Positions 42,681 to 55,064 of a stretch of DNA of 64,000 nucleotides are shown piece after piece. The notes beneath the pieces are model-generated. The model was not told where the DNA came from, made no database searches, and was given only the letters and a program-made list of their open reading frames with translations. Numbering within the stretch: the first letter of the stretch is position 1; each line of letters opens with the position of its first letter. The position numbers were made by a program, and so were the translations under genes. The DNA is from a virus (Duplodnaviria > Caudoviricetes). Location of the stretch: the IMG/VR virus record IMGVR_UViG_3300027917_004314. One strand, 5' to 3'.

Positions 42681-42784
42681 GGACGTATAGCTCAATGGTA
42701 GAGCACTCGTGGGACCTATGTGTGATCGATTACACATAGGTTTTCTCCAGGAGGATATAGGTTCGATTCCTATTGCGTTCGCCG
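42681..42784 (+). ncRNA. tRNA-like RNA with anticodon arm extended into a long hairpin
   Basis: Acceptor GGACGTA/TGCGTTC; D arm GCTC-AATGGTA-GAGC; T arm ATAGG-TTCGATT-CCTAT; 13-bp inner hairpin 42714-42741. Confidence 0.7.
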
Positions 42785-43054
42785 CTAGAGGCGTAATAGG
42801 CAAAAGCCTCTAGTTTCAATGGGTTTGAGCGAAAGGAGGGTTGTTGGAGATCGCAATGACTCTCCCCGTCTGTATCTCAGGGACGGGGAGTCGCATATAA
42901 CTGGGTGGGTACTTATGTTCTTGTGTACCCGTAAGTGCCTGTAATAGTAGGGTTCTGCGTGAAACTTGTGTTGTGATGACATGGGGATTAGCGTGGAGAC
43001 ATGCTATTGGGATTTTCCCCCAGACGGCTTACGAAGGTCGCGCAACAAGAACGT

Positions 43055-43170
43055 GGTATAGATCTCGGCTAGGTGGTTGACCTTAGCAGGTTGATCAAAC
43101 TCGCAGGACAGAGATCTGGATTGGTTTGGGCCACCGATCTTTGTGGGTTCGACTCCCACATGTACCGCCA
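43055..43170 (+). ncRNA. tRNA-like RNA, 116 nt, non-canonical interior
   Basis: GGTATA/TGTACC, then GCCA; T arm GTGGG-TTCGACT-CCCAC. Confidence 0.5.
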
Positions 43171-43549
43171 AGCTCTCGTGTGTTGTGTATCCATGATACA
43201 CACCTGGATGGTGAAAGCCAAGGTGAATACACGAGAACTTTTTAGCCGCCCTATGGCTTGAGATGAAGGGCGGAAGAATGCAAAGCCGCACACGTACACA
43301 TATAGGCGGTACGCATCTTCTTAGCCCTAAATCAACAGAGTACTGCGTGGCTAAATGTCTTGGAGCGTCAGGCTGTAGAGGATCTTGGCCAAGTACGTAC
43401 CTCTGATCCTTACAGTGGAAGAACTTATCTAAGCTTGGTACACTTAGGTGAAAAGAGCTATGCTGACGTATGTGAAGGTAGGCGGGGACCTTTACCTTGG
43501 CCCTACAAGAGCGGCTAAATAATGCATGTTTCTAATGCTTTAAACATCT

Positions 43550-43623
43550 TGCCCCATAGCTCAACGGTAGAGCAAGCGGCTTATAACCGTTAGATCCAGG
43601 TTCAACTCCTGGTGGGGCGACCA
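43550..43623 (+). tRNA. tRNA-Ile (anticodon TAT)
   Basis: Full cloverleaf, loop CT-TAT-AA, encoded CCA. Confidence 0.9.
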
Positions 43624-43625
43624 AT

Positions 43626-43702
43626 GGATCCTTAGCTCAGTTGGTTAGAGCTGCCGGCTCATAACCGGTCGGTCGCTGGTTCGAATCCAGCAGGGTCCAC
43701 CA
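43626..43702 (+). tRNA. tRNA with CAT anticodon, probably Ile2 (lysidine); elongator Met not excluded
   Basis: Cloverleaf, loop CT-CAT-AA, encoded CCA; body resembles bacterial Ile2 tRNAs. Confidence 0.88.
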
Positions 43703-43711
43703 AACACCAAT

Positions 43712-43787
43712 GGGCCCATAGCTCAGTTGGTAGAGCAACGGACTTTTAATCCGTTGGCCGCAGGTTCAACTCCTGCTGGGCTCACCA
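43712..43787 (+). tRNA. tRNA-Lys (TTT)
   Basis: Cloverleaf, loop CT-TTT-AA, encoded CCA. Confidence 0.93.
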
Positions 43788-44067
43788 AATATGATCCAGC
43801 GCCATTGGCGCTCATCACCATGAAAGATCTACCATATATACATACACTTATGTGTGTGATCCTAGATCCGAAGCGAGGGTGGGTGCCGTAAACCTGTGAA
43901 TTTAAAGCGTTATATGAGGGCACCGGGGGGGCTCTCGTGCTATACGTAAAAATTCCCAAAATGGCGTATAAGTTCTTGGGAATACTGGTGTTATGGCTCT
44001 TAAGCCTATTATCTCCTTCCCCGATGAATAGGGGATTCGGCCCAAGAGGGCCGTAAAAGGAGATAGC

Positions 44068-44304
44068 ATGATTAAGACGGCAAAGGAACTGAGAGACTCG
44101 GGTCTCGGCACGGCTGAGGTCCGAAGCAACCTGGACGCTTCTGGCTGGACCCTTCTGCATACAGAAGTCGTCAGGTACTGTCACGACGATGGTAGCCCTG
44201 TGGGCTACCAGTGGTGGCGGAACCCGTCCGCCGAGATCGTACACACGCGTCTAACGTGTGTGGGAGTAATCGCAGCCTCGGCAGTGGCCGTGCTGCAGTT
44301 GTAG
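44068..44304 (+). CDS. hypothetical protein
   Basis: AAGGAG RBS. Confidence 0.65.
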   Translation: MIKTAKELRDSGLGTAEVRSNLDASGWTLLHTEVVRYCHDDGSPVGYQWWRNPSAEIVHTRLTCVGVIAASAVAVLQL

Positions 44305-44384
44305 CAACTAGAAGCCGAACAGCAGGTAACACCTGGTAAGGAAGAGAGCTGTCTAGCACTGCCAGGGGCTTCTATGAAGAGTTG

Positions 44385-44486
44385 CAATACATTTCCTTGC
44401 AACTTAGGGAAACTCCTACATAAACATGGTGGTAGGGGCTCAGCCCAGGGCGTTAGCCAAGCCTTAAGTTGTAGGGAAATGTGTTG
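44385..44486 (+). ncRNA. long G-U-containing hairpin RNA element
   Basis: About 24-bp stem 44385-44408/44462-44486; mismatches at DNA level are G-U pairs on the + strand. Confidence 0.55.
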
Positions 44487-52807: not shown

Positions 52808-53019
52808 CTGTAGAGGGTTTGGTCGGTAGGTTAAAAACACAGAAAGTGTATGCGGGACAGGTGCAGAGCGGAGATATCCTGGTAGAAGGCACTCCAACAT
52901 TTATCCAGGCCGTGGCTTTCGTTGCGGATAGGGCGATCTTTGTTTTTGAGGATGGAAGCAGGAGAGTCTACTGGGACTACGAAATGGTCAGTATTGTCGA
53001 CCGTGGTTGTTTTAAGTAA
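52804..53019 (+). CDS. hypothetical protein
   Basis: ATGA overlap. Confidence 0.6.
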   Translation: MTVEGLVGRLKTQKVYAGQVQSGDILVEGTPTFIQAVAFVADRAIFVFEDGSRRVYWDYEMVSIVDRGCFK

Positions 53020-53237
53020 CGCGGCGTGGCAAGCGGCATGAGCACGGGCTGCCCACACGGGGTAGGCTACGGGGCCGGACTCCCACGCCGCCATATATAA
53101 GGAAACGCGGGGCGGCGGCTCGTTTATCAACAAAAAAACGTCGAGCTTGCAGCAATTTGGGCCGCCGCCCCGATTTTCCGGGTTTGCTGCCCGAAAAAAT
53201 TTTCTTACATAGCCGTTAAAACGGTCGAGGGAGTAAA

Positions 53238-53425
53238 GGCTAAGTCTTGCGTTATCTAGGCTGATGATACTTCTTCCCGGTTTGCCCCTATGAAGGGTAA
53301 GCATGGTTGCTGGGAAGTCTTAGGCCGTGGTAGCGAGGTAGAGCGGTACCGGAACTAGGCAACGGTTTGGGCGTGTTTCCGGGACATGCAGCGCCGCGTG
53401 GGTTCGATTCCTACCTTAGCCTCCA
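53238..53425 (+). ncRNA. 188-nt structured RNA closed by a tRNA-like acceptor stem, T arm and CCA
   Basis: GGCTAAG/CTTAGCC-T-CCA; GTGGG-TTCGATT-CCTAC. Confidence 0.62.
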
Positions 53426-53594
53426 AGTACGTCTAGCAGCCGGTAACGATGGGATGGTTGTCCGGTTATCGCCAAAGATCAACTCGTTACAATGGTCGGC
53501 TCGAGCCGCCGAGTTGTAGGACATCGACTGGGCAGATGGCTGCATAAATCTACCCCATGACGTTCAATTTTTCACTTTTAACCAAGGAGGAGAT

Positions 53595-54038
53595 ATGGTA
53601 ACGGCGTACTACGTCATCTGTGTGCTCGCGTCTGTGTTTGTATACACGGTTCTCGGGTTGGTCTTCTACTCGCAAATCGTGGGGTGGTGGTGGGAGTTCG
53701 AGACGGTCATATCTTCAGCCGGCGCGACCTTTCGGCTGAAAAATCCGGCAGCAGGAAGCTATTGTGCTGCTGCTGCCATCTTCTGGCCTTTATCGCTGGC
53801 GGCGGCAATCGTGTCGCTAGTCATGAAAATCGTGATTCACGGCATCATACGCATCGCCGACATGACGTTGGGGCGCTTCTGGCGATTGCTCAAACGCTTG
53901 TTTAGTTCCATTCTAGGGGCGTTAATTCTGCCGCAAAGAGCCGCCTTCCCTGACATAATGGGTACATCGTTGGAGCCACTTGAGCCGGCGACCTGCGACA
54001 TGTGTCGGGAAAAGTTATCCCAGGCCCCGTACCGCTAG
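53595..54038 (+). CDS. hypothetical membrane protein
   Basis: AAGGAGGAG RBS; 2-3 hydrophobic helices. Confidence 0.7.
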   Translation: MVTAYYVICVLASVFVYTVLGLVFYSQIVGWWWEFETVISSAGATFRLKNPAAGSYCAAAAIFWPLSLAAAIVSLVMKIVIHGIIRIADMTLGRFWRLLKRLFSSILGALILPQRAAFPDIMGTSLEPLEPATCDMCREKLSQAPYR

Positions 54039-54046
54039 GAGGTCAC

Positions 54047-54274
54047 ATGGCACAGCAACACAAGCCACTAGCAGCAGTGGTTGCGCTGCTCGATGATGGA
54101 GCGAAGGAAGATAGAATGATCGCCTACTTCCATCATCTCAACAAGACTCGCCGAACCGCCGAAGTAGTGCAGATATTTGAGGAGTTTTTCCAGGGCAGCG
54201 AGCATGTCCTAGAGAACAAGTTCCCGAGTCTGCACGAGCTTCTGCGGAAACATCGCGAGGCAACCCAGACTTAA
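54047..54274 (+). CDS. hypothetical protein
   Basis: AGGAGG RBS, ATG 54047. Confidence 0.65.
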   Translation: MAQQHKPLAAVVALLDDGAKEDRMIAYFHHLNKTRRTAEVVQIFEEFFQGSEHVLENKFPSLHELLRKHREATQT

Positions 54275-54275
54275 C

Positions 54276-54343
54276 GAAACCTATCTGCTGGCGGGGCAGG
54301 GGCTTTTAGCCTGATGGTGGTTCGAATTCACCAGGCTTTGCCA
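54276..54343 (+). ncRNA. anticodon-less tRNA-like element, family copy 3
   Basis: GAAACCT/AGGCTTT-G-CCA; CTGCT-GGCGG-GGCAG; GGGCT-TTT-AGCCT; GGTGG-TTCGAAT-TCACC. Confidence 0.75.
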
Positions 54344-54366
54344 GGAGAATAACCAAGGAGACTACT

Positions 54367-54789
54367 ATGGCTGTTGATAAAAGAAGGGTTGCAATGCCTG
54401 ACTGCTGGTCTCCGGTACGGAAGTTGGCCAGCGAGTTGGCAGATGGTTGCCAGCTTCAGAAGGGTGCCATTAGCTTGAAGCGAGATGGAGATTGCAAGTA
54501 TACGCTCGCTCTTCGTAGTGGGCAGAAGCCTTTCACTTGTCCAGTGAAAGCGGTCTTCATGTTCATCTACTACGCCGGTGGCCCCGAGTCTATCGAGGTT
54601 ATCGAGTACAAGGAACCGGAGCATAATTGGCGGGCTTATATCAACACTAGTGGGGCGTATGAAGGTGGAGATGATGTTGTCGTTTGCCCCCAGTGTTTGA
54701 AGGAGGACCCGTCATTGGAGGCTGATATCTATTGCTCTACCAGAGAGCCTTGTCTGAAGCATCAAGACCCGGCCAAGAACGGCCGGTAA
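54367..54789 (+). CDS. Cys-containing hypothetical protein
   Basis: AAGGAG RBS. Confidence 0.7.
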   Translation: MAVDKRRVAMPDCWSPVRKLASELADGCQLQKGAISLKRDGDCKYTLALRSGQKPFTCPVKAVFMFIYYAGGPESIEVIEYKEPEHNWRAYINTSGAYEGGDDVVVCPQCLKEDPSLEADIYCSTREPCLKHQDPAKNGR

Positions 54790-54950
54790 GATCTCATGCC
54801 GCATGGCAGCGTTAACGTTAGGTCTGGATGCGTTGTTGCCATGCGTGAAGTCGTATAGGTTTGATGAGGACCTTTGGCTTCGGCTACCTCCCTCGCCTAG
54901 CGTGCGGTCAGTTTGACGAGGCGGAATAATAATCCAGATCACACTGACGT

Positions 54951-55064
54951 ACTATCGTAGTTTAGCGGAAAAGCGACCAAGGCCTACCGCATAACTTCTT
55001 AGAGGTGCTTGCGGATTCATAGGTTGGGGTAGACGAGAAGTTCGACTCTTCTCCGATAGTGCCA
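54951..55064 (+). ncRNA. tRNA-like RNA with long extended anticodon arm
   Basis: ACTATCG/CGATAGT-G-CCA; GTTT-AGCGGAA-AAGC; GAGAAG-TTCGACT-CTTCTC. Confidence 0.7.

Follow-up and report, generated by a model that had tools for sequence, protein, structure and literature searches.

tRNA-shaped RNAs that lack a canonical anticodon arm in an uncultured phage from marine sediment

Three tRNA-shaped elements in a phage RNA-gene island

We analysed a 64,000-nucleotide (nt) stretch of DNA (hereafter the window) from IMG/VR virus record IMGVR_UViG_3300027917_004314, part of a 460,921-bp contig (European Nucleotide Archive, ENA, ERZ27279932) of an uncultured marine-sediment phage, and concentrated on three transfer RNA (tRNA)-shaped elements, e1 (42681-42784), e2 (47293-47391) and e3 (54951-55064), all on the + strand, in which the anticodon arm is not canonical. 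Every RNA gene of the window is on the + strand, at positions from 42.6 to 62.4 kb, within an island of about 20 kb that ends near 62.4 kb and whose open reading frames (ORFs) are small, co-oriented, led by strong AGGAGG-type ribosome-binding sites (RBSs) and without Pfam matches. Canonical RNA genes in the island, as identified by ARAGORN and Rfam, comprise six tRNAs (Ile, Met, Lys, Ile, Glu and Val), whose middle sections measure 22-23 nt, and one transfer-messenger RNA (tmRNA). The same sequence is present in contigs from three runs of two studies, and because e1-e3 are identical across them, an assembly artefact is excluded.

Candidate elements were scored with the Rfam tRNA model RF00005 (gathering cut-off 29 bits) and the tmRNA model RF00023 (cut-off 47 bits), and the fold stability of e1 and e3 was expressed as a z-score against 200 shuffles. 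Below-cut-off Rfam matches to YrlA and Plastid-ycf2 were located on canonical tRNAs and were discarded. The features that concern e1-e3 are as follows, where L001 denotes a contig that carries an ortholog of e3.

42681-42784, + strand: e1, tRNA-shaped RNA (RF00005, 46.9 bits; fold z = -4.87)
42713-42742, + strand: e1 hairpin seen in the fold, 13 bp with a UCGA loop, near-palindromic, then a UUCU bulge, at the anticodon-loop site
42785-42817, + strand: 8-bp hairpin then UUUC directly 3' of e1, a terminator-like or 3'-protecting stem (-12.8 kcal/mol, z = -2.76)
47293-47391, + strand: e2, tRNA-shaped RNA (RF00005, 40.6 bits)
47317-47362, + strand: middle section of e2, 46 nt, with an ill-defined fold
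49259-49608, + strand: tmRNA (RF00023, 165 bits)
54906-54950, + strand (L001 816-856): leader 5' of e3, conserved against L001, with a possible stem GUCAGU...ACUGAC whose end is 2 nt from the acceptor stem
54951-55064, + strand: e3, tRNA-shaped RNA (fold z = -2.23, 3 of 200 shuffles; ortholog at L001 857-934)
54981-55016, + strand: extra hairpin of e3, 36 nt of the window that L001 lacks (alignment gap, columns 31-66)
55065-55078, + strand: AGGAGG RBS directly 3' of the e3 CCA, and the ATG of ORF 55076-55435 (read from the sequence; same layout in L001)

The original prediction had described e1-e3 as tRNA bodies with acceptor, D and T arms, and these arms are present: the acceptor stem has 7 bp in every case, and the D arm of e2 forms three of its four pairs. 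U8, A14, the GG of the D loop, a UUCGA-type T loop and R15-Y48 are found in all three, the 15:48 tertiary pair being A-U in e1, A-U in e2 and G-C in e3. None has the canonical anticodon arm of a 5-bp stem and a 7-nt loop with U33 and a purine at 37; their middle sections measure 52, 46 and 60 nt, respectively. The further description of an anticodon arm that runs into an extra helix is borne out by the folds of e1 and e3 and fails for e2, whose middle is ill-defined. Likewise, the three had been called unrelated in sequence, which holds for the inserts, while the bodies have only the generic tRNA consensus in common.

In e1, all seven acceptor, all five T and all four D pairs form, and a discriminator G is followed by CCG. 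Infernal aligns e1 to the tRNA model only with the anticodon arm skipped, 44 nt replacing 15 model positions. Its minimum-energy fold is a cloverleaf of -41 kcal/mol, and none of the 200 shuffles was as stable. The anticodon stem spans seven positions with one G.G mismatch and, past a 4-nt bulge on the 3' side, leads into the 13-bp hairpin. We ruled out that this hairpin is a repeated or mobile element, given that there is no second copy within the window and no exact copy in IMG/VR. A separate 6-bp hairpin (42664-42678) stops 2 nt 5' of e1. The element lies in a 1.6-kb non-coding stretch, and its neighbouring gene has one relative, 95% identical on a 905-bp contig, and none more distant.

The second element, e2, starts 4 nt past the stop codon of ORF 47028-47288 and has a complete acceptor stem (7/7, including G3.U70) and T arm (5/5), with one broken pair in the D stem. 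Infernal again skips the anticodon arm, 40 nt replacing 17 model positions. The fold of the whole element is no better than that of shuffles (z = -0.01), and suboptimal folds of the middle alternate between one irregular hairpin and two hairpins. The top of the acceptor stem (G1-C72, G2-C71, G3.U70, C4-G69) together with A73 is identical to that of the phage's own tmRNA, whose model matches only the ends of e2, at 25 bits (cut-off 47). We rejected e2 as a tmRNA on this sub-threshold score and on the lack of a tag reading frame, the lack of pseudoknots and the retention of a normal D arm. Searches with the neighbouring proteins of e2 returned the window's own proteins only, apart from two weak matches of the product of 47592-47897 to long unrelated proteins.

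The third element, e3, combines a complete acceptor stem (7/7) with a 6-bp T stem, making a 13-bp acceptor/T stack, and a D stem of four pairs, one of them G.U; its discriminator G is followed by an encoded CCA. The Rfam tRNA model gives no match to e3 even at E <= 10. With its six-pair T stem and no Rfam tRNA match, e3 is less tRNA-like than originally described. It ends 14 nt before the ATG of an RBS-led ORF.

Comparison of e3 with its ortholog

The protein encoded downstream of e3 is 82% identical to its homolog on L001, a 1,996-bp Joint Genome Institute (JGI) contig. At the same site, directly 5' of an AGGAGG and ATG, L001 carries a 78-nt tRNA-shaped element (857-934), and this allowed the two to be compared at 20 base pairs (7 in the acceptor, 4 in the D stem, 3 at the base of the anticodon stem and 6 in the T stem). 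Pairing is preserved in 39 of the 40 pair cells (97.5%); seven of the 20 pairs have changed on both sides, one has changed on one side and one is broken. As a control, sliding the partners reduces pairing to 40-60%. Among the changes from e3 to L001, A1-U72 becomes G1-C72, U3-A70 becomes C3-G70 and the encoded CCA becomes CUA. The tertiary pair 15:48 covaries as well, from G-C in e3 to A-U in the L001 element.

The middle arm behaves differently, with 60 nt in e3 and 24 nt in the L001 element. The latter scores 25.4 bits, below the tRNA cut-off, has two mismatches in any 5-bp reading of its anticodon stem and presents UUU as its 'anticodon'. Since the pairs of the body are compensated while the middle arm is non-canonical and variable in length, selection acts, as far as this pairwise comparison indicates, on the tRNA body of e3 and not on a decoding arm, leaving the middle arm free to vary. 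The original prediction had named a lack of structural conservation in related phages, as expected of simple decaying pseudogenes, as what would speak against it; the e3 body is instead kept in this ortholog. Of its two suggestions, a tRNA mimic or a new type of tRNA intron, the first is thereby strengthened: the body is retained by compensatory change in one e3 ortholog, and the anticodon arm is conserved neither in length, nor in sequence, nor in a decodable loop. Another homolog of the gene downstream of e3, at 54% identity, has no element upstream.

The 45-nt leader immediately upstream of e3 is more conserved against L001 than e3 itself. Its consensus fold contains 11 pairs with three one-sided changes that preserve pairing and zero compensatory ones. 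We did not retain the leader hairpin as a supported structure, because it is no more stable than shuffles and shows no double compensation. A weak match of the DUF2815 RNA motif to the T arm of e3 and the RBS (20.4 bits against a cut-off of 41.2) was likewise set aside, as the ortholog lacks it.

Further tRNA-shaped elements and their gene context

A strict scan for a T arm joined to a 7-bp acceptor stem gave 26 matches on the + strand of the window, compared with a mean of 1.15 in whole-window shuffles. Taken together, the scan, repeat families and inspection identify at least 14 tRNA-shaped elements that are non-canonical, all on the same strand and within the 42.6-62.4-kb stretch, a number subject to ascertainment bias, as the scans detect only elements with intact acceptor and T arms. 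The island of a relative, G001 (IMGVR_UViG_3300005826_000294, a 301,683-bp IMG/VR contig that is 75% complete), contains canonical tRNAs and three comparable forms. These further elements are as follows.

59212, + strand: form with a 4-nt loop (scan or inspection)
52274 and 61072, + strand: forms without an anticodon arm (scan or inspection)
45699-45774, 46154-46232, 54276-54343, 56229-56298 and 62283-62354, + strand: five-member family, 61-79 nt when the G001 member is included, cloverleaf-like, with GRRACCU/AGGYUUC acceptor stems and 5-6-bp D-like stems
43055-43170, 48846-48949, 49004-49157 and 53238-53425, + strand: longer RNAs (104-188 nt) closed by an acceptor/T domain
G001 9716-9773, - strand: 58-nt tRNA without a D arm, loop CUUAAAA, 52 bits
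G001 10913-10952, - strand: 40-nt acceptor/T minihelix
G001 8676-8736, - strand: member of the GAAACCU family

Most members of the GRRACCU/AGGYUUC family occupy the gap from a stop codon to the RBS of the following gene. The member at 45699 follows the only ORF of the 41-64-kb region that has a homolog in the G001 island, and the G001 family member follows that homolog (53% identical products). Between these two elements the acceptor stem is identical and three T-stem pairs are compensated, while the middle arm has 7 bp and a 7-nt loop at 45699 and 3 bp and a 4-nt loop in G001, a trend like that between e3 and L001.

Position relative to genes is a further property of the elements. In a table of 22, half (11) are followed at a distance of 14-26 nt by an RBS-led start, and nine begin no more than 13 nt after a stop codon; e2 and e3 are among the tRNA-shaped folds placed between co-oriented coding units, and e1 sits within its 1.6-kb non-coding stretch. 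The base at position -1 is T in 15 of the 22 elements, including e1, e2 and e3 (background T 0.234, P = 1e-5), and in 9 of the 15 non-canonical elements considered alone (P = 0.003). The L001 ortholog of e3 has T at -1 as well. Bacterial RNase P prefers U at -1 as the leader base. Sigma-70 promoters and intrinsic terminators are no commoner than in shuffles, which is weakly consistent with long co-transcripts.

Several single elements show additional peculiarities. The one at 48846 contains a second, internal T-arm-like hairpin. A 48-52-nt element without an anticodon arm (52273-52325) ends in GCCA, and the 5' end of its acceptor falls inside the TGA stop of ORF 51754-52275. Were RNase P-type cleavage to occur at that point, the upstream message would end in U and lose its stop codon, a scenario that recalls the incomplete stop codons of mitochondrial messages in a phage that carries its own tmRNA. 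A further mini element of L001 (286-341) consists of an acceptor stem, a single hairpin and a T arm and stands ahead of AAAGGAG and a GTG start codon, the layout seen in the armless elements of the window.

Relatives of the locus are few. G001 was the only one returned by a PrkA search of IMG/VR; its PrkA is 74% identical to that of the window, and its island lies at a similar distance from the PrkA gene. The products of G001 include an enzyme of the CCA-adding family (34.5 bits). Five proteins of the window, used as queries against IMG/VR, returned no relative, metagenome scans with one protein and with the conserved e3 leader as a pattern gave no matches, and searches of GenBank phages (megablast with 42-56 kb, blastn with the tmRNA and tblastn with ORF 59310-60248) yielded tRNA fragments only or nothing. 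None of our searches found an ortholog of e1 or e2. An IMG/VR pattern for tRNA bodies with 12-40 extra nt matched at least 120 viral contigs; many of the matches are tRNA-Tyr(GUA) with a 13-34-nt insert at 37/38, some of these on contigs longer than 150 kb, several are tRNA-Ile(UAU) of 91-96 nt, and none is related to e1-e3. Elsewhere, the window encodes a PrkA/DUF444/SpoVR trio, a stress or sporulation module of the yeaG-yeaH-ycgB type, and a PIN-PhoH fusion protein (3665-8248 and 12714-14000).

Possible functions and known counterparts

Our tentative preference, which we hold at a little less than an even chance, is that e1, e2 and e3 are non-decoding, tRNA-derived processing modules that would serve as cutting or stabilising signals in long phage transcripts. 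The part that has been kept is the tRNA body, made up of the acceptor/T minihelix, the D arm and the contacts of the elbow, and it is this part of a tRNA that the enzymes acting on its ends read (RNase P, 3' trimming enzymes or RNase Z, and the CCA-adding enzyme). Neither RNase P nor RNase Z nor the CCA-adding enzyme depends on the anticodon arm. The elements are probably co-transcribed with the small RBS-led genes around them; cuts at their ends would split a long transcript and leave defined, base-paired ends, with the excised RNAs of about 100 nt as stable by-products. An anticodon arm that is no longer needed may have drifted, giving hairpins in e1 and e3 and a scrambled middle in e2. We infer co-transcription, cleavage by RNase P and 3'-end enzymes and any effect on the expression of neighbouring genes. 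Engineered tRNA bodies in which a hairpin takes the place of the anticodon loop are precisely processed and stable in Escherichia coli (PMC3753655).

A number of points weigh against this proposal. There is one ortholog for e3 and none for e1 or e2, for which selection on the body would have to be read from intactness alone. At 13 bp, the acceptor/T stack of e3 departs from the standard measuring length of RNase P. Part of the T preference at -1 may have been inherited from duplicated flanks (repeat families D11 and D20), and short distances to genes would be expected of a compact genome in any case. A punctuation role also fits e3 better than the other two, because no gene adjoins e1 downstream (the nearest RBS-led ORF of any confidence begins at 44068) and because e2 is 203 nt from the next start, with about 200 nt of non-coding sequence following it; e1 and e2 may be released mainly as small stable RNAs.

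An alternative, which we regard as improbable, is that e1 is a tRNA-Glu(UUC) and e3 a tRNA-Met/Ile2(CAU), each split by a short hairpin intron at 31/32 that a protein endonuclease and a ligase remove, a route that has been put forward for the 'enigmatic' introns of Lak megaphages. ARAGORN with introns allowed, the relaxed search that the original prediction proposed, does read e1 as Glu-UUC with a 29-nt insert and e3 as Met-CAU with a 34-nt insert, both at 31/32, the e3/L001 indel coincides with the predicted intron, the 'spliced' e3 loop UUCAUAG has U33 and A37, and tRNA introns of phages are on record (PMC6784885, PMC13037316). However, when the middle section only was shuffled (500 shuffles per element), ARAGORN still made intron-bearing calls in 80% (e1), 63% (e2) and 22% (e3) of cases, and the calls for e1 and e3 are therefore no evidence. 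Nor are the products canonical: excision would leave e1 with one base too many after the D stem, a G.G mismatch and U37, and e3 with a G.G mismatch, an 8-nt variable loop, an extra T-stem pair and the 13-bp acceptor/T stack. We agree with the earlier observation that no canonical bulge-helix-bulge is present, as the predicted 5' site of e1 lies inside a continuous helix whose sole bulge is on the 3' side, and e3 is similar. The inserts, at 23-37 nt, are also too short for a group I intron, as had been noted, compared with a catalytic core (P3-P9) of about 200 nt or more, and Rfam gave no intron match. There is no spliceable reading for e2, the hairpin-free ortholog of e3 is itself non-canonical (UUU, two stem mismatches, 25.4 bits), and canonical tRNA-Glu(UUC) and tRNA-Met(CAU) genes already exist in the island. 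The proposed search for RtcB or an RNA ligase came back empty above cut-off in the 75%-complete G001, which has no RtcB, splicing endonuclease or T4-type Rnl1; its sole RNA-ligase-family match is below cut-off and inside a 2861-aa ORF. With shuffles read as readily as the elements, off-canon products and no RtcB or endonuclease in that relative, the suggestion of a new intron type finds no footing here, and the stronger claim, that the e1 and e3 hairpins are a new kind of 31/32 intron removed by a phage or host protein endonuclease and ligase to give working tRNA-Glu(UUC)-like and tRNA-Met/Ile2(CAU)-like molecules, which would be the first protein-dependent tRNA splicing in a bacterial virus, is very improbable.

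The elements could also be decaying tRNA pseudogenes, functionless relics of turnover with insertions in the anticodon arm, perhaps still processed because the body is intact. That would suit an island so fluid that a single ORF of 41-64 kb is shared with the G001 island, the absence of relatives of the e1 and e2 flanking genes beyond the 95%-identity match, the broken D-stem pair and shuffle-like fold of e2, and the 54%-identical homolog of the e3 downstream gene that has no upstream element. Yet compensation at 7 of 20 pairs and covariation of a tertiary pair, while the middle arm changed by 36 nt, do not resemble neutral decay, and it would be odd for a tightly packed genome to contain about 14 half-decayed genes, each with the same half intact, a count to which the ascertainment bias of the scans applies. 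Neutral relics are contradicted for e3 by compensation; e1 and e2 may be such relics, and for the set we consider this explanation unlikely. Quite unlikely, in our estimate, is that the body is a carrier conferring precise processing and nuclease resistance, the function residing in a chargeable acceptor end or in the hairpin, which could then act as a small RNA, a decoy or a site for protein binding. On this account alanine might be attached to e2 by virtue of A73 and of G3.U70, which is the principal identity element for that amino acid, or acceptor ends might absorb host toxins that attack tRNA 3' ends. In favour of it, the 13-bp stem of e1 is strong and near-perfect, the top four acceptor pairs and A73 of e2 are those of the phage tmRNA, and the architecture is that of an engineered tRNA scaffold (PMC3753655). 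Against this, the e3 hairpin is absent from the ortholog and so is not a conserved payload, the top acceptor pairs and CCA of e3 change in the ortholog, unlike a conserved charging identity, G.U at 3:70 occurs in other island elements and could stem from a single transition, and the window holds no target or complementary site for the e1 hairpin.

Set beside known systems, e1-e3 resemble canonical tRNA genes (RF00005) in their acceptor, D and T arms, their T- and D-loop consensus and their 15:48 pair, with e1 and e2 scoring above the cut-off; they differ in lacking the 5-bp/7-nt anticodon arm, and e3 in its 6-bp T stem and in being missed by the model. The tRNA-like domain of tmRNA (RF00023) has the G3.U70, the A73 and a similar T arm in common with e2, which differs from it by a normal D arm and by having no tag frame and no pseudoknots. 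Stable non-tRNA RNAs that are co-transcribed and co-processed with tRNAs exist in the tRNA cluster of phage T4 (species 1 and 2), although their size and fold are unlike those of e1-e3. In eukaryotic nuclei, mascRNA is a tRNA-like 3'-end signal that is cut by tRNA end-processing enzymes.

Closer in setting are the Lak and other jumbo phages, for which tRNA introns have been reported without a mechanism (PMC6784885, PMC13037316). The Lak tRNA genes were typed to isotype, anticodon and intron with eukaryotic tRNAscan settings; their inserts are identical across cohorts, and some resemble small tRNAs (PMC6784885). Like these 'enigmatic' introns, our elements come from a large uncultured phage and are over-long tRNA genes with short inserts in the anticodon region that cannot self-splice; unlike them, excision restores no canonical arm in e1 or e3, and the e3 insert is missing from an ortholog that is itself non-canonical. 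A survey of huge phages does not mention tRNA-like elements (PMC7162821), and our literature search for tRNA punctuation in bacteriophages yielded, among the papers listed, mitochondrial ones only; a description of tRNA-type processing modules in a bacterial virus was not found in the papers searched. In mitochondria, tRNA folds likewise lie between coding units on one strand and are cut by tRNA end-processing enzymes (PMC8601606); those are organelles, and for the phage elements such cutting is a prediction. The engineered tRNA scaffold of Ponchon and Dardel has the same acceptor, T and D arms with a hairpin in place of the anticodon stem-loop (PMC3753655), and differs in being man-made where e1-e3 are natural; the literature search found no natural phage counterpart of it.

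The set described here is real and unusual, a variant of known tRNA-like elements whose mechanism we infer. Should the processing-module interpretation hold, tRNA genes would have become general-purpose RNA-processing modules in a huge phage, and the messages from its small early genes would be cut and shaped by host tRNA-maturation enzymes, comparable to the punctuation of mitochondrial transcripts by tRNAs. It would account for the many 'odd' tRNA calls in huge phages and counsel caution in reading such genes as decoding capacity or as tRNAs with introns, and the elements would be natural counterparts of the tRNA scaffold of RNA engineering.

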